Shown here piece by piece: positions 24,123-45,168 of a stretch of DNA of 64,000 nt. The DNA comes from Promethearchaeota archaeon (lineage in GTDB: Archaea > Asgardarchaeota > Lokiarchaeia > Sigyniarchaeales > SOKP01): the NCBI GenBank assembly GCA_016839555.1, contig JAEOUA010000003.1, forward strand, positions 192,001 to 256,000, read 5' to 3'. Within the stretch, counting starts at the first letter, position 1, and each line of letters begins with the position of its first letter. The notes beneath the pieces were generated by a model. That model saw nothing but the letters and a program-made list of their open reading frames with translations. It made no database searches and was not told the origin of the DNA. The translations under genes and the position numbers were made by a program.

Positions 24123-26033
24123 ATGAATTCTGAATGGATTGAAACTAAAAAATCTAAAACTTCAACTTGTTTAGGTCCAATTGAAAATTTAGAAGAACAT
24201 GTAGATAAGGACTGGTGGAATCATATTTTTAATTCCATGTATTTAAAAACAGATGGAGATGTTGTAGAGGATCCAATAATAACTTCAAGAGAAATTGATC
24301 TTTTTTCGAAAATACTTGATCTAAAGCCTAATGATGTAATACTTGACTTATGTTGTGGACAAGGTAGGCATTCTCTTGAATTGGCAAGAAGAGGATTTAC
24401 TAATATTGAAGGATTAGATCGTTCGCATTTTCTAATTAAAAAAGCTAGAGAAACGGTAAGAAAAGAGGGTTTAGCTGTGAAATTTCAAGAGGGTGATGCT
24501 CGGAAACTAAATTATTCTACTGATTCATTTGATGTGGTATTGTTATTAGGAAATAGTTTTGGATATTTTAAATCAATAAAGGATGATCTTTTGGTATTAA
24601 CTGAAGTATTTAGAATTCTAAAACCTTGGTCCCGTATTTTAATAGATTTAGCAGATGGGGAATACTTAAAAAAGAACTTTGCACCTCATTCTTGGGAGTG
24701 GATTGATAAAAATATTTTTGTATGTCGCGAACGCTCTCTTTCTCTAGATAAACATAGATTAATTTCAAGAGAATTAATTACTCATGTCAACATAGGAGTA
24801 TTGATTGATCAATTTTATGCTGAAAGATTATATTCTAAAAATAGAATTTTGGAATTATTAAAAAAAGCTGGTTTTACTAATATAAATTTTCACGGAGAAG
24901 TATCCCCTGCATCTCAGAGGAATCAAGATTTAGGAATGATGGAAAAGCGTATACTAGTGAGCGCTTGTGCAAAAAAAGAATGGACAGTTGTTGAAAAGAA
25001 ACAAAAAAAGGCACAGAAAAATGTTGTGGTGATTTTTGGAGATCCTAACAAGGCTGATATTTTAAAACCATTAAGAATCTTTGATGAGGATGATTTTTAT
25101 ACAATAGAACAATTAAAAAATAATTTGCGAACATTTGAGGAATATAATTTTATGTATCTTACTAATCATAATACACTTGTTCAAGAATTATTGAAATTAA
25201 GAGGTCAAATTGATTATGTATTTAATTTATGCGATGAAGGATATGATAATAATGCGAGAAATGAATTACATATTCCCGCACTCTTAGATGTTTTAAGAAT
25301 ACCTTATACAGGAGCAGGACCTCAATGCCTTGCTTTTTGTTATGATAAATCTCTAGTGAGAGGAATTGCAAAAGAAATGGGGATACCCGTACCACACGCC
25401 ATATATATCAAACCAAAAGATGAAAAATTTGATTTTCCCTTTTATTTTCCAGCAATAGTGAAACCTAATTTCGGAGATTCTAGTTTCGGAATAACACAAC
25501 AGAATGTTATCTATAATGGAGAAGACCTCATAAATGTAATTTCTAATTTACGCGAGCAATTCGGTTATAATAGTCCTATCTTGATTGAGCAATTTCTTCC
25601 AGGGAAAGATTTAACTTTAGGAATTATTGGAAACTCTTATGATGATTTTCTCATTCTACCTATTTCTGAGGATGATTATTCTGAACTACCATCAGATCTG
25701 CCCAAAATCTGTGGATATGAAGCAAAATGGTTGCCAGATTCGCCTTACTCTAAAATTAAATCTATTAAAGCAGAATTACCCAATAAAACGGAAGAATTAA
25801 TTCAAAGAAGCAGTCTTAAATTATTTGAGAGATTGGAATGCCAGGATTATGCCAGATTTGATTGGAGGCTTGATATTGATGGAAATCCAAAATTATTAGA
25901 AGTAAATCCGAATCCTGGATGGTGTTGGGATGGTCACCTTGCTAAAATGGCAAGCTATAATAATATGGATTATAAGGATATGCTTTCAAAGATTCTTAAA
26001 ACTGCAGAGAAACGATTAGGTTTGGTTAAGTAA
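24123..26033 (+). CDS. SAM methyltransferase / D-Ala-D-Ala-ligase-like ATP-grasp fusion
   Basis: ILDLCCGQGRH and GDAR; then FNLCDEG, PYTG, DKS, IVKP..GDSSFGI, EQFLPG, ARFDWR and LEVNPNPG. Confidence 0.85.
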   Translation: MNSEWIETKKSKTSTCLGPIENLEEHVDKDWWNHIFNSMYLKTDGDVVEDPIITSREIDLFSKILDLKPNDVILDLCCGQGRHSLELARRGFTNIEGLDRSHFLIKKARETVRKEGLAVKFQEGDARKLNYSTDSFDVVLLLGNSFGYFKSIKDDLLVLTEVFRILKPWSRILIDLADGEYLKKNFAPHSWEWIDKNIFVCRERSLSLDKHRLISRELITHVNIGVLIDQFYAERLYSKNRILELLKKAGFTNINFHGEVSPASQRNQDLGMMEKRILVSACAKKEWTVVEKKQKKAQKNVVVIFGDPNKADILKPLRIFDEDDFYTIEQLKNNLRTFEEYNFMYLTNHNTLVQELLKLRGQIDYVFNLCDEGYDNNARNELHIPALLDVLRIPYTGAGPQCLAFCYDKSLVRGIAKEMGIPVPHAIYIKPKDEKFDFPFYFPAIVKPNFGDSSFGITQQNVIYNGEDLINVISNLREQFGYNSPILIEQFLPGKDLTLGIIGNSYDDFLILPISEDDYSELPSDLPKICGYEAKWLPDSPYSKIKSIKAELPNKTEELIQRSSLKLFERLECQDYARFDWRLDIDGNPKLLEVNPNPGWCWDGHLAKMASYNNMDYKDMLSKILKTAEKRLGLVK

Positions 26034-26130: not shown

Positions 26131-27720
26131 ATGGTTATAGGTTATTTTGGTTTAGTCCTTCACGGGCATATTCCGTGGTGTAAAAAATCTGGAGTCTGGC
26201 CAGCGGGAGAAGAATGGTTAATGGAAGCTATGGCAGAATCCTATATTCCTTTTCTTAATATTATGAGAGAACTTAAAAATGAAGGTATTAAGACAGCCAT
26301 TACGATCAATATTACGCCAATATTGGCAGAACAACTCTCGGATGAATATATGAAACAGCGCTTTTCTGAATATATGGATGATTTAATTATCCGTGCTCAA
26401 AATGATATTTCGAGATTTCAATATCAACCAAAAAAAAAAGAAATCTCACAATTTCATCTCAATAGATTAGAACAGGTTCTAAATACGTTTTATCATAATT
26501 ATTATAGAGATCTTCTAGGAACTTTTAAATGGCTCCAAGAGGAGGGCATGATTGAATTAATAACATGTGCAGCCACACATGGCTTTCTACCGTTATTTGA
26601 AAGCGACTCCGGAATTTTTTCACAAATTCAGACGGCTGTTGACACTCATAAAAAATATTTTGGAAGGCAACCCAAGGGTATTTGGCTTCCTGAATGTGCT
26701 TATCGTCCAAAAGAATATAGAAATGGAAAGGTGAGAGAAAGTTTAGATTATTGGCTTAATAATTCGGGAATTGAGTATTTTTATGTGGATACTCATGGTC
26801 TTTTAGATGCTGAGCTTCTAGAAGTAAAAAATTCATTTGGACTCACAACAAAATTCGGTTATAATTTAGAAACAGGAGTGTCTGTGTTTGGGCGAAATAG
26901 AAAAACAAGCAGACAAGTATGGGATGCGGAAATAGGATATCCTGGTGATGAATATTATAGAGAATTCCATAAGAAAGATAATGAATCTGGTTTGCATTAT
27001 TGGCGAATAACTGGAAAGGACGTAGATAAAGAGCATAAAGAATTATATGATAGCAAAATGGCGCAAGAAAGAGTGGACAGCCATAGCTTGCATTTTGTTT
27101 CTATAGTGGCTGAAATATTAAAGGCATTTTCAGAAGAATTTAATACTAGAGGAATTATTGTATCTCCATATGATTTCGAATTATATGGACATTGGTGGAT
27201 GGAGGGGATAGATTGGTTAAAAGCTATATTTAACTTAATTAATAAAAATGAAAATATCGAGATGATAACCTTTTCAGAATATATCTCCAAATATAAAGAA
27301 CAATTTTCAATTATAAAGATGGGGAAAAGTAGTTGGGGAAAAGGAGGATATTTTGAAGTATGGCAAAATCCTGATCATGGATGGATTTGGCCCTACATAA
27401 ATTCTTCTATAAAAGATTTTGAAAATGTATTAGCAGACACTCCTAATCCTGGAAGTTGGGGAATTGATATACTTCAACAAACAGCTAGAGAATTATTATT
27501 AATGGAGGGTAGTGATTGGCCATTCCTTTTATATACAAAACAAGCAAAAGAATACGCAAATAAGCGATTTCATCACCATCATCAGCGATTCAACAAATTA
27601 ATCTGGCAAGCAAAAAATTTAAATGAAAGAAATAGAATTTCTAAAGAAGAACTCATGTATATCAAGGATATTGATTCATGTTTTCAAAATTTAAATATTG
27701 AATATTTTAGAAAGAGATAA
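26131..27720 (+). CDS. GH57 1,4-alpha-glucan branching enzyme
   Basis: HGHIPW, EEWL, ATHGFLP, WLPECAY, YDFELYGHWW and SDWPF. Confidence 0.9.
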   Translation: MVIGYFGLVLHGHIPWCKKSGVWPAGEEWLMEAMAESYIPFLNIMRELKNEGIKTAITINITPILAEQLSDEYMKQRFSEYMDDLIIRAQNDISRFQYQPKKKEISQFHLNRLEQVLNTFYHNYYRDLLGTFKWLQEEGMIELITCAATHGFLPLFESDSGIFSQIQTAVDTHKKYFGRQPKGIWLPECAYRPKEYRNGKVRESLDYWLNNSGIEYFYVDTHGLLDAELLEVKNSFGLTTKFGYNLETGVSVFGRNRKTSRQVWDAEIGYPGDEYYREFHKKDNESGLHYWRITGKDVDKEHKELYDSKMAQERVDSHSLHFVSIVAEILKAFSEEFNTRGIIVSPYDFELYGHWWMEGIDWLKAIFNLINKNENIEMITFSEYISKYKEQFSIIKMGKSSWGKGGYFEVWQNPDHGWIWPYINSSIKDFENVLADTPNPGSWGIDILQQTARELLLMEGSDWPFLLYTKQAKEYANKRFHHHHQRFNKLIWQAKNLNERNRISKEELMYIKDIDSCFQNLNIEYFRKR

Positions 27721-32476: not shown

Positions 32477-35458
32477 ATGGAAAAAAATAAAATGAATGAA
32501 TCAGAAATAAATGAAGAATTAGATCGATTTAAAGACTCCCTTTCTCTTTTAAATGTTGTTTTTAGTCGCAAGAGATTAAAGAAAGAAATATATAATGAAA
32601 AAACGGGTTTTATTTTTAATGCTAAATATCAATTTTCTACGCGCGATGGAGGATTTAATTTTTATGTGGTATTTAATAATGGAGAAATTACTACTGGTGA
32701 AGGCAAAATTGAAGACCCTAATATTACAATCTTTTACAAAGATAAAGCAACCTTAGCAGAAACCTGGAATAAAAGTGCAGATGAAACTCTTGAATATTTA
32801 CTTGATAATTCCATGTCTTATAAAGGGAATATGTGCTATTTGACTAAATTTTCCTATCTTACTACAATCGCGACCGGAGCAAAAATAAAAGGATATAAGG
32901 GTCCTGAAAATCAACTTATTTGTTCTATTGATGAGATATTAAAAGGAGAAGAAGGAAGAAAACTTCAAAATGAAAGTTTAAACCGAAAAATCGATAATGT
33001 AGAATTTTTAGAGGATCCATATTTATCAAAATATACAATTGATGATTTTCCGCGTTTAAAATATCTTAAAGCTCGCCGCAGAGCGATGAAGCCTGCTATA
33101 TGCGTTGAGAGAGCAAAACTATTAACGGAATATCATAGAAGAAACGGTTATGAAGTAGATAATGATGGGAATCCAATAGATCCTGAAATACGTCAGGCTA
33201 AAGCTGTTAATTATATTATAAGTAATAAAAAGCCAATTATTCATGACTATCATCTTGTAGCGGGTTCAACCACAACAAAAGAGGCAGGTATTCCTATGTA
33301 TCCTGAACTAATTGGTACTGCTGCATGGCCTGAATTACGGGCTATAGGAGATCGCAAGCTTAATCCTAATGATATTGATCCAAAAGATGCAGATATTCTA
33401 AGTCAAGAAATATTTCCATATTGGATGGAAAGAAATGTACGAGAGTATTGCCGGGCAAAATTTAATGATCCCGTTTCTCAATGGCTTGAGGAATGTTGGG
33501 TTTTCTATTTTATGATGAAAAATAATGCTATTTCACATACCGTTCCCGGATTTCCCATAATTCTTGAAAAGGGTTTAGAATCTATTAAAAATGAAGCCCT
33601 TGATAAGGAACAGGCAGCAGATTCATCGGAAGAAAAAAGGTTTTATAAAGCAGTTACAATTGCTATAGATGGTGCTATAGCTTATTCGAATCATTTGAGT
33701 GAGGAAGCCTTGAGATTAGCAGATTCATTAGATCCCGATGATCCTGAGCAAGCACAGCGAATTACGGAATTAAAGGAGCTTTCCCGGATCTGTGCAAAAG
33801 TTCCTGCAAAACCAGCAGACACCTTATATGAGGCGATTCAATCTATATGGACTAGTTTCGTATGTATCCATTGTGAAAATGCTAATTCTGCAATGTCAAT
33901 CGGGCGATTAGATCAGATGTTGCAACCGTTTTTTTTAAAAGAAATGAAAAAAGCCCAGAGTAAAGAAGAACAAGAAAAAATAATTGAAAAAGCAATTGAG
34001 CTCGTTGGATCTTTAATTTTGAGAATCAATGATCATGATCCTTTAGTGCCCTCCATAGGAAATAAATTATTTGGGGGGAGCTCTTCTGATGATACAGTTA
34101 CCGTAGGAGGCGTAGATAGAAATGGAAATGACGCCGTGTGCGATATGACATTTGTAATTTTAAAAACAAATGAAATGCTATGTTTTCAAGATCCAAATAT
34201 GAATGCCAGATATTATCCGGGAATTAATTCTGAAGAATATCTAAGACGTTTGGTTGAGGTTAATGTAAATATGATTTCTTCTCCCGCAATTCATAATGAT
34301 AAAACTATGATTGAGGCTCTGGTGAACGAGGGGTTTGCTATAGAGGATGCAAGAGATTGGGCTGCAACAGGTTGTGTAGAACCTACAGTAGTTGGTAAGC
34401 ATTATGGGCACACTAATTGTATGCTATTAAATTTGGTTGCACCACTAGAAATGGTATTAAATGATGGAGTCCATCCTTTAATTGGGGAACAAGTTGGTCC
34501 TAAAACTGGAATTCCTTCTTTAGAAAATTTTCCAACCTTTAATGATTTTTATAATGCATATAAAACTCATCTGGCATATCTAATTGAGAAGTCAATAGAA
34601 ATAAATAATTATTTGGGAATTAGTCATCAATATATCCACCCAACACCCTTTTTATCTGCTTTCTATGAAGGACCCTTAGATAAGGGAAAGGACTTAATTC
34701 ACGGCGGAGCGAAATATAATACATCAGGAGTAGCATTAGTAGCTTTAACGGATGTTGTTGATAGCCTGTTAGTCATAAGGGATTTAATCTATGATAAAAA
34801 AGAATTGGATTTTTCTACTCTACTCTATGCATTAGAAGATAATTTTGAAAATGGCTCGGCAGAATTATTGAATAAAATTGATAAAGTTAATAAATTTGGC
34901 TCTAATGAACCTGGAACTCAAGAAATTGCCGATGATTTGCTAGATTTTTGTTATAATGAATATAAAAAGACGAAAAATTATAGAGGCGGAGATTATCTTG
35001 TAGGATATTGGTCCATAAGTTATCATGTGGGGTATGGAATGCTTACAGGGGCATTGCCTTCAGGTAGAAAAGCGGGAGAATCCTTAACTCACGCACTAAC
35101 ACCGGCACCTGGAAGATCTGATCTATTGCTTCAAAACATCCACACCATAGCAAGCTTGGATCATCTAAAAATGCCCAATAATGCATCTTTTAATGTTAAA
35201 CTCGTCCCCAATGCTAACGATTCTCATCAGAAAACTTTAGACATTTTTACCGGTTATGTACAGAGTTTTTTTGATTTAGGAGGAATGTTGTGGCAATTTA
35301 ATATAGTAACCTCAGATACTTTAAGAGATGCAATGAAAAATCCTGATAATTATCGGTGGTTACTTGTTCGAGTGTCGGGTTATAATGCGTATTTTACAAA
35401 AATCAATAAAAATATGCAAATAGAAATAATAAAAAGAACAGAATTTCAGTCGAGATGA
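32477..35458 (+). CDS. Glycyl radical enzyme (eliminase-type) with an N-terminal SCP2-like domain
   Basis: SIGRLDQ, ATGCVEP Cys loop, QFN and LVRVSGYNAYF Gly loop; aa ~45-128 show an SCP2-like pattern. Confidence 0.88.
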   Translation: MEKNKMNESEINEELDRFKDSLSLLNVVFSRKRLKKEIYNEKTGFIFNAKYQFSTRDGGFNFYVVFNNGEITTGEGKIEDPNITIFYKDKATLAETWNKSADETLEYLLDNSMSYKGNMCYLTKFSYLTTIATGAKIKGYKGPENQLICSIDEILKGEEGRKLQNESLNRKIDNVEFLEDPYLSKYTIDDFPRLKYLKARRRAMKPAICVERAKLLTEYHRRNGYEVDNDGNPIDPEIRQAKAVNYIISNKKPIIHDYHLVAGSTTTKEAGIPMYPELIGTAAWPELRAIGDRKLNPNDIDPKDADILSQEIFPYWMERNVREYCRAKFNDPVSQWLEECWVFYFMMKNNAISHTVPGFPIILEKGLESIKNEALDKEQAADSSEEKRFYKAVTIAIDGAIAYSNHLSEEALRLADSLDPDDPEQAQRITELKELSRICAKVPAKPADTLYEAIQSIWTSFVCIHCENANSAMSIGRLDQMLQPFFLKEMKKAQSKEEQEKIIEKAIELVGSLILRINDHDPLVPSIGNKLFGGSSSDDTVTVGGVDRNGNDAVCDMTFVILKTNEMLCFQDPNMNARYYPGINSEEYLRRLVEVNVNMISSPAIHNDKTMIEALVNEGFAIEDARDWAATGCVEPTVVGKHYGHTNCMLLNLVAPLEMVLNDGVHPLIGEQVGPKTGIPSLENFPTFNDFYNAYKTHLAYLIEKSIEINNYLGISHQYIHPTPFLSAFYEGPLDKGKDLIHGGAKYNTSGVALVALTDVVDSLLVIRDLIYDKKELDFSTLLYALEDNFENGSAELLNKIDKVNKFGSNEPGTQEIADDLLDFCYNEYKKTKNYRGGDYLVGYWSISYHVGYGMLTGALPSGRKAGESLTHALTPAPGRSDLLLQNIHTIASLDHLKMPNNASFNVKLVPNANDSHQKTLDIFTGYVQSFFDLGGMLWQFNIVTSDTLRDAMKNPDNYRWLLVRVSGYNAYFTKINKNMQIEIIKRTEFQSR

Positions 35459-35537
35459 TTGTTTCATTAAAATATAAATCTGAAATAAAATAATCTAAAT
35501 TTTTATTATAATATTTAATTTTTTATCTTTTTTTATT

Positions 35538-36431
35538 ATGAATACACTTATTATCGATATTAAGAGAAATGCATTAGACGATGGTCCTGGAATAAGAACA
35601 CTTATTTTCTTTAAAGGATGCCCATTATCTTGTGTATGGTGCCAAAATCCAGAAGCAAAATCATCAGAGCAAGAAATTTCTTTCGAAAATGAACTATGTA
35701 GTTTTTGCGGAAAATGTGCGGAAGTATGTGAGACTAATGCGATTAATTTGGATTATAAATATAGAATAAATAGAGAAGTATGTAATTTATGTGGAAAATG
35801 TGTCAATATATGTCCCAATCACGCATATGAACTTGTAGGAAAATTTTACGAAATAGATGAGTTAGTTGATATTATTCTTAAAGATAAAATTTTTTTTAAG
35901 AATTCAGGTGGAGGAATCACTCTATCGGGAGGAGAACCTACTTTACACATGAATTATATGAATAAATTATTAAAAAAATTAAAAAAACAAGAAATTCATG
36001 TTTGTTTAGAAACATGCGGATATTTTAATCTTTCAAATTTCACAGAAATGATACTGCCATATCTTGATTTAATCTATTTTGATCTTAAGCTTTATGATCC
36101 GGCATTACATAAAAAATATTGTGGCGTTTCCAACGAGATAATTCTTCAAAATTTTAAATATTTGATTAATGAAGCAAAAGTTGAAATATTACCTCGTATT
36201 CCACTAATTCCAAATATTACAACCGATGAAAATAATTTAAAGAGTTTCGCTCAATTTTTAAAGTCGAATAATATAAATAAAGTTCATCTTCTTCCTTATA
36301 ATCCTTTATGGCTCTCTAAACCCGAGAAAATTGGAGTCAAACTGGAATATGATTACTCAGAAATGCTTAAAAGCGATCAAAAAGAACAAATTAAAACCTT
36401 ATTTTCAGATTTTGAATATAATCAATTTTAA
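35538..36431 (+). CDS. Glycyl radical enzyme activase with a ferredoxin insert
   Basis: DGPGIRT..FFKGCPLSCVWCQNPE, two CxxCxxCxxxC, SGGEP and LLPYN. Confidence 0.93.
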   Translation: MNTLIIDIKRNALDDGPGIRTLIFFKGCPLSCVWCQNPEAKSSEQEISFENELCSFCGKCAEVCETNAINLDYKYRINREVCNLCGKCVNICPNHAYELVGKFYEIDELVDIILKDKIFFKNSGGGITLSGGEPTLHMNYMNKLLKKLKKQEIHVCLETCGYFNLSNFTEMILPYLDLIYFDLKLYDPALHKKYCGVSNEIILQNFKYLINEAKVEILPRIPLIPNITTDENNLKSFAQFLKSNNINKVHLLPYNPLWLSKPEKIGVKLEYDYSEMLKSDQKEQIKTLFSDFEYNQF

Positions 36432-36502
36432 GATAGCTCATTTTTAATAGGAAAAATCTCTAATTATATTTTAATAAATTATCAAAAATGAGTTGAAAGT
36501 CT

Positions 36503-37354
36503 TTGAATAATAATTTTGAAACAATTAAATTTGAATTACAAGATAATGGAATTGGTATTTTAACTCTTAATAGACCAGAGAAATTAAATGCGATTTCTTT
36601 TCAAATGGAGGAGGAGCTTCATAATATATTAGATGAGTTATCTACTAATTTAGATTGTAGAGTATTAATTCTAAGAGCAGAGGGAAGAATTTTTAGTGCA
36701 GGTACAGATCTTCAAGAAGGTCTAATATTGAATTCAAAAAAGAGTCCTGAAGGCTATGAAAAATTTTATTATTTAGAAGTTCCAGAGCCATTAAAAAGAA
36801 AAATCTATCATCAATGGAGAATAACCCAATTGATTGTGAAACTTCGAGAGATTCATCAACCTATAATTGCATTAATTCAAGGATCTGCTGTCGGAGGAGG
36901 ATTCGGATTTTTATTAGCGTCTGATATTAGAATTGCAGCGTCTAACGCAAAATTCATTATTGCATCAATTAATATTGGTTTAACAGGAGCCGATACGGGT
37001 TCGAGCTATTTTTTACCTCGTCTCATAGGAATGTCTAAAGCAGCGGAAATTATGTATACAGGTAAATCAGTTGATGCAGGTGAAGCACTAAAAATTGGTT
37101 TAATTTCAAAGATAGTTCCTAATGAAAAGCTTTTAGATTCTGGAATTGAATTAGCAGAAGAAATGTTAACAAAGAGCCCTTTAGGGTTAAGATTAACAAA
37201 AAAAGCAATAAATTTATCACTAGATTCACCATCTCTTAATACCATTATTCAATTCGAAAATAGTTCAATTGTTTTGGCGTTCTCATCTAAAGATGTGGGA
37301 GAGGCATCAGCTGCATTTTTTGGAAAGCGAAAACCGAATTATCCTTTGAAATGA
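36503..37354 (+). CDS. Enoyl-CoA hydratase/isomerase (crotonase) family protein
   Basis: LNRPEKLNA, FSAGTDL, AVGGG, DIRIA and LPRLIG. Confidence 0.9.
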   Translation: MNNNFETIKFELQDNGIGILTLNRPEKLNAISFQMEEELHNILDELSTNLDCRVLILRAEGRIFSAGTDLQEGLILNSKKSPEGYEKFYYLEVPEPLKRKIYHQWRITQLIVKLREIHQPIIALIQGSAVGGGFGFLLASDIRIAASNAKFIIASINIGLTGADTGSSYFLPRLIGMSKAAEIMYTGKSVDAGEALKIGLISKIVPNEKLLDSGIELAEEMLTKSPLGLRLTKKAINLSLDSPSLNTIIQFENSSIVLAFSSKDVGEASAAFFGKRKPNYPLK

Positions 37355-39207: not shown

Positions 39208-40365
39208 TTATGGTGAAATCAATTTTCCAATAAAAATGATAGTTTTTGTTTGAGAGTCTACTATCAAAAATATAAATGCATGATCAGCTTTGAAAATAGG
39301 AATCTTTCGCTGAGGAAGAGGGCCCTTTCCACGTTTTGTTATCATAGTCACAGCAGCAGCTTCAGTACCCTTTTCATTTACATCAACAAAGGCTTTATGA
39401 AGAATTTCACCAATATTTAGAAATAAATTTTTAGAGATATCTATAATTCCCGAAAAATCTGCGACTGTTGTAAATGGAAGAGTAAGACCTAATTTTTTCA
39501 AATCCTTTTTAAGCTCATATTTAGTCTCCATTTTAAATTTAGGAATATAAATGTCTACTTCTTGTTTATATAATTGCTCTAAATGAGTAAATAAAAAATC
39601 TACTGATATTTTTTTTTCCAAATTTTTTAGTCTATATTTATCAGTAGGGAGAAATATAAACATAGAGTATCTTTCAATTTTCCCATATCTCTGATTACCC
39701 TTATAAGGCAATTCAAGTATTTGAAGATCTTTATTCTCAAAATAAGGAAATACATTAATTTGATGCATTAATAAAACAGGTGCAATCTCCCTGTTTTGAA
39801 GATAAAAATTTGTTTCTTGAGTCAAATTTTTATTAAAGCTAATATCCCATATCCCCTTAAAATAAATTACGTTTAGTAAAATTAATTTAATGGTTGGATC
39901 AAATTTTTGGGGTGAAATTATAGTTTTAATTTTGTTATATGTGTTTTTTTTTACCCATATATTGATTTTATTGCAAGTGTTCTCAATATTTTCAAAATTT
40001 TCTTTATAGAATGCACCATTGTAATTCTCTTCCATTAGATAGAGGAATGATTCAAGAATTTCATAATTATTATCTGCCCAAATAGAGTTAGCAATAGTAA
40101 CTTCAATATTTTTAATTTTTAAAAGTTTATCTACCAATTCTCTAATTTTAATAGGCACTTTTGTCTTATTGAGTGTTATATGAAGCCTATTCTTTAATTG
40201 TTCTTCTGTTTCATTTTTTGCTCCCATAAATATCATAGTTAGCGCTGTGAATATGCTTAAAGGTGAAATAAATAAGTTTTGATCAGTTTCTTTCAATTGA
40301 ATATATAAATCGATTGCAAACGCATTAATAGAATTAGAAATAGAAAATTGTCCAATACTTGACAT
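39208..40365 (-). CDS. Serpin (serine protease inhibitor)
   Basis: NLFISPLSI, LNVIYFKGIW, IPKFK, VNEKGTEAAA and FKADHAF. Confidence 0.93.
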   Translation of the reverse strand: MSSIGQFSISNSINAFAIDLYIQLKETDQNLFISPLSIFTALTMIFMGAKNETEEQLKNRLHITLNKTKVPIKIRELVDKLLKIKNIEVTIANSIWADNNYEILESFLYLMEENYNGAFYKENFENIENTCNKINIWVKKNTYNKIKTIISPQKFDPTIKLILLNVIYFKGIWDISFNKNLTQETNFYLQNREIAPVLLMHQINVFPYFENKDLQILELPYKGNQRYGKIERYSMFIFLPTDKYRLKNLEKKISVDFLFTHLEQLYKQEVDIYIPKFKMETKYELKKDLKKLGLTLPFTTVADFSGIIDISKNLFLNIGEILHKAFVDVNEKGTEAAAVTMITKRGKGPLPQRKIPIFKADHAFIFLIVDSQTKTIIFIGKLISP

Positions 40366-42133: not shown

Positions 42134-43426
42134 CTAACTTTTATTGTTCATTAAAGGTAAAATTTGGGGTCCATTAGGCAATATTAATATTCTAGACTCT
42201 CCACCATGCTTTTTTAAACCTCTCAAAATCGCTTCTTCTACTGTTTTTGAATGTTTCAGACCAATATTCCCAAGTTCTCTTTTTTTAAGTTTAGAAATTA
42301 CATAAATTTCAGCTTTCATTAATATTCGTGCCAATATTTGAATCTCCCATTGGTCTGGCACATTAATCTCATTTTTTAAGATTTTTTTATGGATTTCTGC
42401 TGGTGAGAGAGACAAATTTATCAAATCTTTGAATTTTTCATGTCCGCTGCCTATGCCATCCGAACATTCATTTACTGATATTATTGTACCTCCATTCTTG
42501 ACGGCCATCTCTCCTATAGCCATACTCTTTACGGCTTGATATAGATTCAAATCCAAGGGATACCCTCCGTTCCCACATATAACAATATCATATGGTTTAT
42601 CAATTTTTTTAAAGACTTTTTTTAATTGGAAATTAACAAGATGTTTATGTGTCTCCTCTAAATTTCCAGCAGTAACTTTATTTATTTCATGGTTTTGATT
42701 AATGCAAACGTTTACAATAAAATCAACACCCACTTTTTTAGTAATTTCTATTGAATTTTTATGGATTGGATTATCCTCAAAAATTCCAAATCTTGCAAAT
42801 GGTGAAGCAATATTTTTTGCAGAATGATTGCCTTTTATGGTTTCATAGCCTGCAATTCCGGGGATTACTGATTTCCTACCTCCTGAGAATCCTGCAAAAA
42901 AGTGGGGTTCAACATAACCCGTGAGTATTTTTAAGTTTGCTGTATAGTAGTGTTTATTAATCCATATTGGAACTTCATCGCTATCAACCCCTAAATTTAT
43001 TAAATCATCTCTATTTGTAGCAATATGTCCAAATACTTCAATTCTTTTCCTAATTTCTTGACTTATAATTCTTTGCAATTCAGGTTCTCTACAAGAGCGA
43101 TGTAGTCCAGTAGCAATTAAAATGAGGATTTGATTATCACTGATTCCGTTTTCATTCAATTCTTTTATGAGAGCTTGAAGGATGAGGTGTGAAGGCACAG
43201 GCCTAGTTGCATCGGAAACAACAATACAGACTTTATTAATTGGTTTTTTTTGGTGAATAATATCTCTTAATACTGGTGACCCAATAGGATTATTAATTGC
43301 ATTTCTAATGGCTTTAATTGGTTCATGGATAGCTTCCTGATGTTTGGGATAAAAAATATCAACCTTCCAATCTGGCTGAAGTGAGATATCCAAGCCATTT
43401 TTACCATAATCGATTTTAACGTTCAG
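42134..43426 (-). CDS. larA: Nickel-pincer lactate racemase family protein; extended to a CTG start at 43426
   Basis: VSDATRP, ATGLHR, EPHFFAGFSGGRKS, GYPLD..LYQAVK and DQW; in-frame upstream LNVKIDYGKNGL. Confidence 0.88.
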   Translation of the reverse strand: MNVKIDYGKNGLDISLQPDWKVDIFYPKHQEAIHEPIKAIRNAINNPIGSPVLRDIIHQKKPINKVCIVVSDATRPVPSHLILQALIKELNENGISDNQILILIATGLHRSCREPELQRIISQEIRKRIEVFGHIATNRDDLINLGVDSDEVPIWINKHYYTANLKILTGYVEPHFFAGFSGGRKSVIPGIAGYETIKGNHSAKNIASPFARFGIFEDNPIHKNSIEITKKVGVDFIVNVCINQNHEINKVTAGNLEETHKHLVNFQLKKVFKKIDKPYDIVICGNGGYPLDLNLYQAVKSMAIGEMAVKNGGTIISVNECSDGIGSGHEKFKDLINLSLSPAEIHKKILKNEINVPDQWEIQILARILMKAEIYVISKLKKRELGNIGLKHSKTVEEAILRGLKKHGGESRILILPNGPQILPLMNNKS

Positions 43427-45168
43427 AATTCTCTCCTCTTATGAAGAATTTCTCTGGCTTTTTCAAATATATAGCAAGTATCAACACCAGAGGGACATAA
43501 TTCTTTACATAATCCACATAAAGTACATGCATGAAATATATCATTAATTAATCTATTTGGTTTTAAATCACCATAAACCAAACCGTTTAAGATGCTTAAA
43601 CGGCCCCTTGGGCTATATGCTTCAATAAAATAATTCATTCGAGACGGGCATAAATTTATACAGAACCCGCATCTCATACATCGTAATTCTAAAATTTTAT
43701 CTTCTTGATTTTTTAATTTTCTGGAGATTTTTATCGAGCTTAATTTTCTCTGATCCCCTTTCCCAATACCTGGATTTAGAATTTGATGTGGATCGAATAA
43801 TTTTTTAATATTATTCATTAAATCAACCACTTCAGAGCCATGCTCTAATTCAAGATAAGGAGTTTTAATTTTTCCAATTCCATGTTCACCCGTTAAAGTT
43901 CCCCCAGAAGGAATTATGATCTTTTTATAGAGAAAATCTATTGCTTTTTTAAAATCTTCTACATCTTCTGGGTTATTTTCATTAAACATAAATGTGGGAT
44001 GTAGATTTCCTTCCATATGACAGATCGTAGCAACTATTAAATTTTTAGCCCCAATTTTTTTTGGGAGGTCTTCTATTTTTTTTATAATACTATCAAATTG
44101 CGTTATTTTTATGGTACAATCTTCAACGCAAGTGGTGGGCATTAATCGTGATAATGCTGGAAGATTTGCCTTCCTTGCTAAAATCAATCTTTCTCTCTCC
44201 TTTTCATTGCTCGCAATTCTATGCAATATAGGATTATTAGTCATTATTTTCTCAAACATAAGATTAAAATCATTTTCTACTTCATCTTCAGAGTTTCCAT
44301 CGACTTCAGCAAGTAAAACATATCCATTCGGAAATTCCAAAAATTCTCCTCCTAAATAGTCTGTCACCGCTTTTAAAATCACTTTATCCATAAATTCAAG
44401 TAGATTAGGAACTATTCTTGTTGATCTTAGCTCAATAGCAGCATTTTTTAACTTTTTAATATCATCAAAAATAAAGAGTGCTAACTTTCGAAATTTGGGA
44501 TATGGTCTAATTCTTAAGCCAATTTTGGTTATAACACCGAGTGTTCCCTCAGAACCAATTATTAAATCTTTTAAATTATATGATGAGACAGATTTTAACA
44601 CGTCGGTGCCCAGATGAAGTATTTTACCATTGGGTAATACAATATCAAGAAAAAGGACATAATTCTTAGTAACACCATATTTAAAAGCTTGAATACCGCC
44701 TGCATTATTCGCAACCATACCGCCGAGGGTGGCTACTGAACTAGAGCCTGGGTCAGGCGGAAAAAAATATCCCAATTTTTTTAATTTATCATTCAAATCA
44801 TCGCATATAACCCCAGGTTGGACTACTACTAGATTATTTTCTATATCAATTTTTAGTATTTTATTCATTTTAGTTAAGTCTAACACAATTCCCCCAAATG
44901 GTGTCATTGGACCTCCAGATAAACTTGTACCATTCCCTCGTGGGATAATTGTAATCAATTCTTTATCTGCAAGTATTAATATCTCAGAAATCTGATTATC
45001 TGTTTCAGGCGTGAGGATTAAATCGGGAATCCAATCTCGTTCAAATAAAGTTCCTCCAAATGCATATGTCCATCTTATTTCGAATTCATCATAGAAATTA
45101 GTTTCTCCCACAATTTGTTTAAATTCTTCTTTTAAATCAGGGTTGAGTTCTGAATAACCATGGCTCAT
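43423..45168 (-). CDS. FAD-linked D-2-hydroxyacid (D-lactate/glycolate) dehydrogenase with C-terminal 2x[4Fe-4S]
   Basis: PRGNGT, FPPDP, GSEGTLG, GNLHP and GEHGIG; CMRCGFC..CP and CTLCGLC..CP. Confidence 0.88.
   Translation of the reverse strand: MSHGYSELNPDLKEEFKQIVGETNFYDEFEIRWTYAFGGTLFERDWIPDLILTPETDNQISEILILADKELITIIPRGNGTSLSGGPMTPFGGIVLDLTKMNKILKIDIENNLVVVQPGVICDDLNDKLKKLGYFFPPDPGSSSVATLGGMVANNAGGIQAFKYGVTKNYVLFLDIVLPNGKILHLGTDVLKSVSSYNLKDLIIGSEGTLGVITKIGLRIRPYPKFRKLALFIFDDIKKLKNAAIELRSTRIVPNLLEFMDKVILKAVTDYLGGEFLEFPNGYVLLAEVDGNSEDEVENDFNLMFEKIMTNNPILHRIASNEKERERLILARKANLPALSRLMPTTCVEDCTIKITQFDSIIKKIEDLPKKIGAKNLIVATICHMEGNLHPTFMFNENNPEDVEDFKKAIDFLYKKIIIPSGGTLTGEHGIGKIKTPYLELEHGSEVVDLMNNIKKLFDPHQILNPGIGKGDQRKLSSIKISRKLKNQEDKILELRCMRCGFCINLCPSRMNYFIEAYSPRGRLSILNGLVYGDLKPNRLINDIFHACTLCGLCKELCPSGVDTCYIFEKAREILHKRREF

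Follow-up and report, generated by a model that had tools for sequence, protein, structure and literature searches.

Glycyl radical enzymes (GREs) perform hard oxygen-free reactions of anaerobic carbon cycling. Those characterised as eliminases, such as CutC, glycerol dehydratase and the 1,2-propanediol dehydratases, all act, to our knowledge, on small soluble molecules. SCP2 modules are found in enzymes such as SdsA1, MFE-2 and UbiJ, where as a rule the module holds the substrate by its hydrophobic tail. Here we describe a locus where a GRE and an SCP2 module are joined. We analysed 64,000 nucleotides from the genome of a Promethearchaeota archaeon (GCA_016839555.1, contig JAEOUA010000003.1), hereafter the window; coordinates without a prefix are window positions. 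The window encodes a GRE with an N-terminal SCP2 domain (SCP2-GRE), followed by its putative activase and an atypical crotonase. A literature search returned no paper on an SCP2- or sterol-carrier-linked GRE, nor on a GRE acting on ether lipids. From fold, active-site residues and gene context we infer, with a slight lean in its favour, that SCP2-GRE is a radical 1,2-eliminase, which would act on a hydrophobic hydroxylated substrate and release a carbonyl product into coenzyme A (CoA) chemistry.

An SCP2 fold at the N-terminus of a glycyl radical enzyme

An earlier note on this DNA had read an SCP2 pattern in the N-terminus of the GRE. When the region was searched with the Pfam model PF02036, it stayed below the cut-off (12.6 bits versus 21.3, E 0.19), and the homologous N-termini gave E values of 0.005-0.017. 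A profile of the family N-termini placed SCP2 entries at the top of the PDB, yet with an E value of 0.55 only. Since the sequence signal was sub-threshold, the assignment needed fold comparisons and hhalign searches. In the AlphaFold2 (AF2) model the domain had a pLDDT of about 90 over residues 10-130, and the order of its helices and strands was that of SCP2. The top 46 Foldseek matches in the PDB were all of the SCP2 family (E 7e-6 and better, probability 1.0), including AF1534, UbiJ-SCP2, the C-terminal domains of alkylsulfatases, human and insect SCP2 and the SCP2L domain of MFE-2. VIA-align, which is independent of Foldseek and covered 48,161 chains, superposed the domain on human SCP2 with a Z score of 11.8 and an rmsd of 2.6 Å over 111 residues; the best 9 chains were all SCP2 and all others had Z scores of 6.7 or less. 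In Asgard genomes the domain had weak tblastn matches, which Pfam in turn recognised as SCP2 proteins (1e-8 to 1e-12), and hhalign against three PF02036-passing Asgard proteins gave a probability of 96.4% and an E value of 1.1e-9. We conclude that the N-terminus is a genuine SCP2 fold, by fold and by profile-profile comparison. The reading of the earlier note therefore stood, although the PF02036 search that it had named stayed below the cut-off.

Among the closest folds were SdsA1 (2CFU), MFE-2 SCP2L (1IKT) and UbiJ-SCP2 (6H6O), where an SCP2 module likewise accompanies a catalytic domain for a hydrophobic substrate. Unlike these, the module of the window is N-terminal and paired with a radical enzyme; it is 10-16% identical to them, and the GRE-linked type also occurs standalone, with about 150 residues.

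As a separate observation, the source genome has about 10 open reading frames (ORFs) with SCP2 domains, unusually many for 3.7 Mb. One of them, a standalone SCP2 protein (C10:274096-274521), lies between two genes of the URO-D family.

Fused and split forms of the SCP2-like module

With the N-terminal 200 residues, 119 clusters of GREs of about 987 amino acid residues were retrieved. One genome per species was scanned, which gave 67 loci. The archaeal members belong to the Promethearchaeota and to the Thor-, Odin-, Hod-, Hermod-, Jord- and Freyarchaeota, the bacterial members to the Desulfobacterales, Desulfosudaceae, Desulfatibacillum, a metagenome-assembled Bacteriovoracaceae genome and others. 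The mean column identity of the family over its full length was 70%. When the genomes of the phylum were searched by tblastn, 57 of 301 matched the SCP2 domain at E <=0.001; about 30 carry the fused GRE (E <1e-17), and the weaker matches were mostly unrelated SCP2-domain proteins. In a FastTree phylogeny rooted on unfused paralogues the bacteria formed a basal grade, and the main Asgard clade was nested within it (support 97) as the sister of a Desulfobacterales group. This quick, paralogue-rooted tree would fit a transfer of SCP2-GRE from a bacterium to the Asgard archaea. Homologous N-termini were also present in a deeper Asgard clade (L091, L092 and L094) and in a sister bacterial family with the motif GGSSSDQ (A2 profile, 1e-9 to 3e-18).

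The module was found outside fused proteins as well. An exhaustive profile search of 1.84 billion representatives gave 386 proteins at E <=0.001, 153 of them at <=1e-10; most were standalone proteins of about 130-200 residues. Three standalone proteins were looked up. Two of them adjoin a GRE and an activase, in the order GRE, SCP2-like protein, activase (L130) or SCP2-like protein, GRE, activase (L128), and the third lies on a contig of 774 bases, which was too short. A further split pair is encoded in the source genome of the window (C6:267894-270782, that is L126:7895-10782), where an unfused GRE of 804 residues with the loop GCLEP is followed by an ORF of 143 residues that matched the GRE-type SCP2 profile at E 5.5e-9. 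It is surrounded by genes for a thiamine pyrophosphate (TPP) enzyme, two sugar-type transporters of the major facilitator superfamily (MFS) and a Zn alcohol dehydrogenase; no activase gene was present within the 19 kb examined. Neither this ORF nor the N-termini of the sister family had a Pfam match. The three standalone SCP2-like proteins that adjoin a GRE are 143-151 residues long, and an activase accompanies two of them. Since the module is fused in some lineages and adjacent in others, we regard this as strong evidence that it is a dedicated partner of GREs.

The source genome encodes five GRE paralogues, including C10:456466, C6:267993, C7:234171 and C5:333958 (L007, L008, L010 and L011), and none reached an NCBIfam equivalog cut-off. 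Only L007 passes the PFL2/glycerol-dehydratase subfamily model among the GREs of this genome. The C7 protein has VKVGGY at the site of the RVxGY glycine motif and the Cys loop GCVDM. Four Desulfobacterota genomes (G301-G304, loci L095-L125) had 9-13 PFL-like matches each, some of them split genes, which leaves about 8-11 GREs each. These comprise the SCP2-fused family, its SCP2-fused sister family (GGSSSDQ) and GREs encoded in tandem whose Cys loop reads GCVY; in D. aliphaticivorans bona fide AssA genes are also among them.

The SCP2 domain is predicted to dock on the barrel

The AF2 model of the whole chain had a pTM of 0.89. For a docking test the SCP2 part (residues 1-136) and the core (186-993) were folded as separate chains in three runs and accompanied by three controls. 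The ipSAE, which is a confidence of the model and not a measurement, was 0.89 in all three runs and 0.00 in the best of the controls. At least 93% of the contacts were common to the runs, and the partner pLDDT was at least 86. Of 80 solved complexes 58 reach the mark set by the docking tool, as do 2 of 110 mismatched pairs. Searches of the PDB found no comparable solved complex, and it is therefore unlikely that the pass reflects the memory of the model.

In the predicted complex the SCP2 side contributes residues 36-47 and 101-131. These stretches span its final two helices and its final strand, with the conserved motif GN-x-x-YLTKFSY. The core contributes residues 281-289, 306-327, 339-341, 526-531, 668-671 and 855-856. 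The interface residues Trp284, Pro285, Arg319, Arg322 and Glu323 are invariant in the family and differ in PFL2 and CutC. Because the segments 339-341 and 526-531 lie just ahead of two active-site elements, the loop with His354 and the strand with Asp538, the SCP2 domain would cap one mouth of the barrel.

The catalytic core resembles the Cys-x-Glu eliminases

Pfam assigned residues 193-854 to the PFL-like family (PF02901, E 2e-158) and residues 874-974 to Gly_radical (PF01228, E 2e-19). The Cys loop GCVEP and the glycine motif RVSGY were invariant among 43 homologues, and His354 and Asp538 nearly so. Target-normalised TM-scores in Foldseek were 0.88-0.92 to a 1,2-propanediol dehydratase (9rco), PFL2 (2f3o), glycerol dehydratase (1r8w) and CutC, and lower to BssA (0.75-0.78). 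The best sequence matches in the PDB were PFL2 of A. fulgidus (E 3e-112) and glycerol dehydratase (6e-106), with MasD (6e-57), BssA (2e-49) and PFL (9e-30) far weaker. The protein missed the NCBIfam equivalog cut-offs of CutC (TIGR04394, 400 bits versus 1050), HypD (NF043068, 400 versus 1100), HpsG/HpfG, the indoleacetate and hydroxyphenylacetate decarboxylases and PFL. The cut-off of the PFL2/glycerol-dehydratase subfamily was missed too (538 versus 678 bits).

The glycerol dehydratase of C. butyricum (1R8W) and the GRE 1,2-propanediol dehydratases (5I2A, 9RCO) share with SCP2-GRE the barrel (TM 0.89-0.91), an identical GCVEP loop, a His at the position of CutC Asp216 and an activase with a ferredoxin insert. 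In the alignment Cys633-Val-Glu635 falls on the GCVEP of 1r8w and 5i2a. These dehydratases yield aldehydes, which matches the aldehyde:ferredoxin oxidoreductase (AOR) genes beside SCP2-GRE genes described below. They are, however, only about 28% identical and have no GGSSSDD strand; SCP2-GRE adds 190 residues of SCP2 domain and linker, and its gene has no microcompartment or 1,3-propanediol genes nearby. In addition, His446-Asp447 of glycerol dehydratase corresponds to Thr646-Asn647, so that the diol-binding Asp is replaced. PFL2/PflD of A. fulgidus (2F3O) is the best PDB sequence match (TM 0.92) and has a single Cys with Glu and a His at position 354. It differs in its length of 776 residues, the lack of an SCP2 domain, an identity of about 29% and the strand SGQATNQ instead of GGSSSDD.

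CutC (5FAU) has the eliminase mechanism, the Cys-x-Glu loop and a Thr at Cys+13; in SCP2-GRE this is Thr646, which by its offset probably matches CutC Thr502. The CutC segment GGGDSNPG aligned with AISHTVPG (phmmer, with the numbering checked through the Y208F entry 5fay). Asp216 of CutC is thus replaced by His354, and Phe395 by Asp538. We take the His354 position to be that of His164 of glycerol dehydratase, the general-acid position in these dehydratases, and a His at this site to be the mark of hydroxyl-eliminating GREs. Such a His would favour an oxygen leaving group over trimethylamine or sulfite, and the two replacements argue against a trimethylammonium leaving group.

Two further identities were rejected. 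PFL was excluded since there is no Cys-Cys pair (the residues are Gly632-Cys633) and TIGR01255 gave 124 bits versus a cut-off of 994. A GRE associated with a bacterial microcompartment was excluded since no shell-protein genes lie nearby. Taken together, these comparisons place the protein, as far as its residues tell, in the Cys-x-Glu eliminase class without matching any characterised eliminase. This agrees with the earlier note, which had proposed an eliminase that is neither a PFL nor a fumarate-adding enzyme: the Cys-x-Glu loop is present and the Cys-Cys pair and the CMSP loop are not. The comparison with known eliminases that the note had asked for showed the missed cut-offs and the replacement of Asp447 of glycerol dehydratase and of Asp216 and Phe395 of CutC.

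The alkylsuccinate synthase label fails at the defining residues

Single-Cys PFL-like GREs of Asgard archaea (Hermodarchaeota) that are 29-33% identical to AssA/BssA and have a Gly-Cys motif have been called alkylsuccinate or benzylsuccinate synthases (Ass/Bss; PMC8163825). Our searches returned Hermodarchaeota members of the 987-residue family, possibly the genes of that study. If the label applied, the window GRE would activate hydrocarbons by fumarate addition. Apart from its published use for homologous Asgard GREs, this is favoured by the presence of the family in the alkane- and alkene-degrading Desulfatibacillum, and an SCP2 domain would fit a hydrocarbon substrate. AssA/MasD (9O8U) and BssA (4PKF) are members of the GRE superfamily with a single active-site Cys, ferredoxin-insert activases and hydrophobic substrates of their own.

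As a reference we used AssA from D. aliphaticivorans (L122/L123), where L123 scored 1485 bits to MasD (PDB 9o8u). Its Cys loop reads ACMSPCPTTK, and an Arg follows 15 residues after the Cys, presumably the fumarate-binding Arg508 of BssA. The window GRE is 25% identical to this AssA and has GCVEP in a loop that is 3 residues shorter. The Arg of AssA aligned with His645 (MAFFT) or Cys648 (BLASTP), and no Arg is found in residues 633-650. Hence the CMSP loop with its 3-residue insertion and the Arg at Cys+15, which characterise AssA, MasD and BssA, are both absent. Sequence and fold also place these synthases at a greater distance than the eliminases (see the E values and TM-scores above). Between or beside the three genes of the window no co-directional ORF of at least 80 residues was present, and genes for the small FeS beta and gamma subunits are therefore not evident at that size limit. 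Finally, the Desulfatibacillum genome itself (D. aliphaticivorans) encodes bona fide AssA genes alongside SCP2-GRE. The tandem GREs of D. alkenivorans (L104) were also considered as AssA and rejected, since they matched MasD at 5e-104 only, no better than other GREs.

Judged by these residues, the Ass/Bss label fails for SCP2-GRE, and we consider fumarate addition by the window enzyme hardly credible. With the label corrected, hydrocarbon activation by these genes in Asgard archaea is unsupported. PFL2/PflD has been claimed as an alkylsuccinate synthase as well, on grounds that appear weak to us (PMC8163825); as its own function is debated, it gives no clue to the substrate.

Gene neighbourhoods point to an aldehyde

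Neighbourhood clustering comprised 808 ORFs from the 67 loci and the window. The earlier note had named conservation of the cluster of GRE, activase and crotonase as a check; across the family the cluster was not conserved. An activase ortholog was the immediate downstream gene in 38 of the 67 loci, whereas the crotonase was adjacent in few. The next most frequent neighbour was AOR (23 loci), which was the commonest third gene in Asgard archaea, where it lay within 5 kb in 16 of the 27 main-clade loci with at least 3.5 kb of downstream sequence. AOR also stood beside SCP2-GRE in three bacterial loci. Within the groups the AORs were 53-86% (bacterial) and 65-82% (Asgard) identical, whereas between bacteria and Asgard the identity was only about 35%. 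Different paralogues thus appear to have been recruited separately, and this separate recruitment is our best single argument for an aldehyde product. As an observation on the source genome itself, its set of about 10 AOR paralogues is unusually large for 3.7 Mb.

In four bacterial loci a 602-residue acyl-CoA dehydrogenase with a FadE-type C-terminal domain lies between the crotonase and SCP2-GRE. An uncultured member of the Desulfobacterales (L078:1198-13641) has a tight same-strand group that encodes a V4R protein, an 831-residue GRE of another type, a long-chain acyl-CoA ligase, a crotonase without the catalytic Glu, AOR, the 602-residue dehydrogenase, SCP2-GRE and a 209-residue protein. 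The latter is also conserved in L068 and L082 and had no family match; several neighbours of 690-710 residues had no or uninformative family matches.

About 20 Asgard loci have a divergent upstream pair of genes for a flavoenzyme of the CrtI/phytoene-desaturase family (about 522 residues) and a PaaE-like FNR/2Fe-2S reductase (about 409 residues), for example in the regions L043:6782-9722 and L046:6782-8011. We take this pair to recall systems of the limonene-dehydrogenase type. In these loci Ldh_2 dehydrogenases and a cation-efflux gene lie further upstream, and in L059 and L065 the pair is duplicated downstream. Some loci add a gene for a HAD phosphatase, a metallophosphoesterase or a NUDIX protein. 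Taken together, the neighbourhoods of the 67 loci suggest that the product is an aldehyde and that AOR, ligase, acyl-CoA dehydrogenase and crotonase process it further in a CoA-dependent way.

The linked crotonase lacks both hydratase glutamates

A crotonase adjoins the GRE only within this genus (in the window and, as two copies per locus, in L028 and L029), in L034 and in nine loci of bacteria. One subfamily unites twelve GRE-linked crotonases, which are encoded in the window, in L028 and L029 and in seven of the bacterial loci; between archaea and bacteria they are 39-43% identical. The GGG motif of the oxyanion hole was present in the alignment. When compared with the canonical hydratase 5zai (GGGLE...LPEINLG), the window crotonase reads GGGFG...IASINIG, with Gly and Ser at the two Glu positions, which we take to be Glu144 and Glu164 of rat ECH. 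Both glutamates are absent in the 11 related crotonases, too. Ordinary enoyl-CoA hydration can therefore not be assumed. The subfamily has the motif G-x-G-A-D ('GGAD'); in the window it reads GLTGAD with the retained Asp164, presumably at the position of Asp204 of dienoyl-CoA isomerase. Among solved structures the nearest were those of two uncharacterised mycobacterial proteins, 5e0n and 3sll.

The crotonase bears on the possibility that the GRE acts directly on a CoA thioester or an acyl-CoA-borne chain, for example a hydroxyacyl-CoA that is dehydrated radically, with the SCP2 domain binding the acyl-CoA and the crotonase acting directly before or after the GRE. SCP2 proteins bind acyl-CoAs, the one crotonase subfamily is the neighbour common to this archaeal genus and the bacteria, and an acyl-CoA dehydrogenase gene lies immediately upstream in four bacterial loci. 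However, the separate recruitment of AORs indicates a free aldehyde rather than a thioester, and the presence of a ligase in L078 means that a free acid would have to arise beforehand. In addition, we know of no GRE that acts on a CoA ester except for the acetyl transfer by PFL, which needs the Cys-Cys pair that is absent here. An acyl-CoA substrate thus seems distinctly unlikely.

Proposed reaction and substrate

In the reaction that we lean towards, the activase would install the radical on Gly968, from where it would pass to Cys633. The thiyl radical of Cys633 would take a hydrogen from a carbon that bears a hydroxyl group, and Glu635 would deprotonate this hydroxyl. The neighbouring C-O substituent, a hydroxyl or alkoxy group, could then leave with the aid of His354, which would yield an aldehyde or a ketone. 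The polar end of the substrate may be bound by His354, Ser535, Ser536, Asp538, Glu635 and Asn647, and the SCP2 domain, docked on the loops that flank the active-site strands, would hold or deliver the hydrophobic part. In the relatives the aldehyde would be oxidised by the adjacent tungsten-type AOR, activated by the long-chain acyl-CoA ligase and then handled by the FadE-like dehydrogenase and the same atypical crotonase as in the window. The substrate might be an ether lipid (a 1-O-alkylglycerol or one of the archaeol type), a vicinal diol of the long-chain or polycyclic kind, or an amino alcohol of the sphingoid type. The earlier note had proposed a radical elimination on a hydrophobic substrate that feeds CoA-dependent degradation. 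The SCP2 fold, the eliminase class and the CoA-linked gene context are in line with it, whereas the three-gene cluster is not conserved across the family. The examples that it gave, glycerol ether lipids and hydroxy-acyl chains, are plausible but would be guesses at this stage.

Several observations weigh against this reading. The source genome has no ortholog of the GRE-linked AOR of Asgard archaea, and its paralogues are 30-36% identical to it. In Desulfatibacillum and some other bacteria the SCP2-GRE gene stands alone, and the context is heterogeneous. The crotonase lacks the hydratase glutamates, as described. AF2 confidence was low at residues 526-535 and in the Gly loop. Finally, the predicted active-site residues His354, Ser535, Ser536, Asp538, His642, His645, Asn647 and His850 are polar; such a lining would suit a polar head group and, equally, a small soluble substrate.

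In keeping with the polar lining, SCP2-GRE might instead be an eliminase of a small soluble diol, polyol or amino alcohol, in which the SCP2 domain would not carry the substrate but only cap the structure, tether the enzyme to a membrane or regulate it. The nearest folds are indeed small-substrate dehydratases, several loci are without lipid or CoA genes, and the split form on contig C6 lies among genes for a TPP enzyme, sugar-type MFS transporters and a Zn alcohol dehydrogenase. Nevertheless, no equivalog cut-off of a known eliminase was reached, and the Asp of glycerol dehydratase is replaced. The close folds of the SCP2 domain include the enzyme-fused modules of SdsA1, MFE-2 and UbiJ, which bind hydrophobic tails. 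Moreover, the bacterial operons encode a long-chain acyl-CoA ligase and a FadE-like dehydrogenase, and 20 Asgard loci have a gene for a CrtI-family flavoenzyme next to that of SCP2-GRE. We consider a small soluble substrate unlikely, if still worth keeping in view.

The hydrophobic-substrate reading can be taken further to an anaerobic lyase or dehydratase of ether lipids, with the SCP2 domain presenting the alkyl or isoprenoid chains of a 1-O-alkylglycerol or of archaeol. The hydrogen would be taken from the free CH2OH carbon of glycerol, and elimination of the hydroxyl or alkoxy group at C2 would give a 3-alkoxypropanal. AOR and CoA ligase could turn this into 3-alkoxypropionyl-CoA, from which the Glu-less crotonase might beta-eliminate the remaining alcohol, a step that would need no activation of water. 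The acryloyl-CoA so formed would be reduced to propionyl-CoA by the neighbouring acyl-CoA dehydrogenase. This version would account for every recurrent neighbour, but as a specific assignment we hold it to be improbable.

Layout of the locus

The source genome has 3.74 Mb on 12 contigs. An Asgard origin is borne out by the names of the homologues (Promethearchaeota/Lokiarchaeota), by TFIIB and an archaeal-type prolyl-tRNA synthetase encoded in the flanks of the locus and by a GC content of 30%. The genes for GRE, activase and crotonase are co-directional, with gaps of 79 nt and then 71 nt. A divergent gene for prolyl-tRNA synthetase lies upstream, and a convergent gene without an assigned function lies downstream. 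An oligo-T run is found 3' of the crotonase gene. The earlier note had listed the GRE frame with strings from its N-terminus, GCVEP near 34370, RVSGY near 35369, an activase with a ferredoxin insert and a crotonase, and the translations, Pfam and TIGR02494 located all of them (Table 1). The start of the GRE is probably Met6 (32492), which gives a protein of 988 residues, since a 100% identical database entry and the homologues begin there. The linker after the SCP2 domain has little regular structure and contains the conserved elements KGYKGPEN, D173, L178 and D180. The activase scored 299 bits to TIGR02494 (cut-off 174) and has the motif CPLSCVWC (CX3CX2C, residues 28-35); its ferredoxin insert (residues 54-92) is made up of two CX2CX2CX3C motifs.

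Table 1. Features of the SCP2-GRE locus in window positions.
Feature	Position	Strand	Size or remark	Basis
SCP2-fused GRE	32477..35458	+	993 aa from first ATG	ORF translation, Pfam PFL-like and Gly_radical
N-terminal SCP2-fold domain	32498..32875	+	residues ~8-133	AF2, Foldseek, VIA-align, hhalign
Linker	32876..33040	+	residues ~134-188	AF2 secondary structure and pLDDT, conservation
GRE barrel and glycyl radical domain	33053..35398	+	residues 193-974	Pfam, Foldseek
His354	33536..33538	+	CutC Asp216 position	phmmer alignment to CutC
Asp538 in signature GGSSSDDT	34088..34090	+	CutC Phe395 position	CutC alignment, paralogue motif comparison
Cys loop GCVEP	34370..34384	+	residues 632-636; putative thiyl-radical Cys633 and general-base Glu635	translation, alignment
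Glycyl radical motif RVSGY	35369..35383	+	residues 965-969 (Gly968)	translation, Pfam Gly_radical
GRE-activating radical S-adenosylmethionine (SAM) enzyme	35538..36431	+	297 aa	TIGR02494, Pfam Radical_SAM and Fer4
Atypical crotonase-fold enzyme	36503..37354	+	283 aa, TTG start	ECH_1 (PF00378), E 2.6e-52

Elsewhere in the window a full-length serpin is encoded at 39208-40365 (-; Pfam E 2e-100), here in an archaeal genome. A 636-residue fusion of a SAM methyltransferase and a C-terminal ATP-grasp domain of the D-Ala-D-Ala-ligase type (24123-26033, +) is followed by a GH57 branching enzyme (26131-27720). A homologue of the LarA-type lactate racemase (Lar_N and LarA_C) lies at 42134-43393 (-). The adjoining ORF of 581 residues (43423-45168) clusters with FAD_binding_4 proteins of related loci.

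Implications

Particular to this work are the use of a verified AssA to refute the Ass/Bss label at the level of residues, the finding that bacteria and Asgard archaea recruited their AORs separately, the shared subfamily of Glu-less crotonases, the controlled docking test and the split pair of GRE and SCP2-like protein in the same genome. A GRE clade with a dedicated partner of the SCP2 type, fused or split, suggests that radical elimination extends to substrates that do not dissolve in water. Both Asgard archaea and the sulfate-reducing bacteria of sediments carry the clade widely, and the literature searched offered no biochemical precedent for it. The correction of the label changes metabolic reconstructions of Asgard archaea. 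The fused or split architecture and the small operon make the function amenable to heterologous expression tests. The substrate could reveal an anaerobic degradation of membrane ether lipids, long-chain diols or hopanoid-type polyols. If the ether-lipid version were true, it would be the first oxygen-independent route for cleavage of the glycerol ether bond of membrane lipids, in Asgard archaea and in sediment sulfate reducers.

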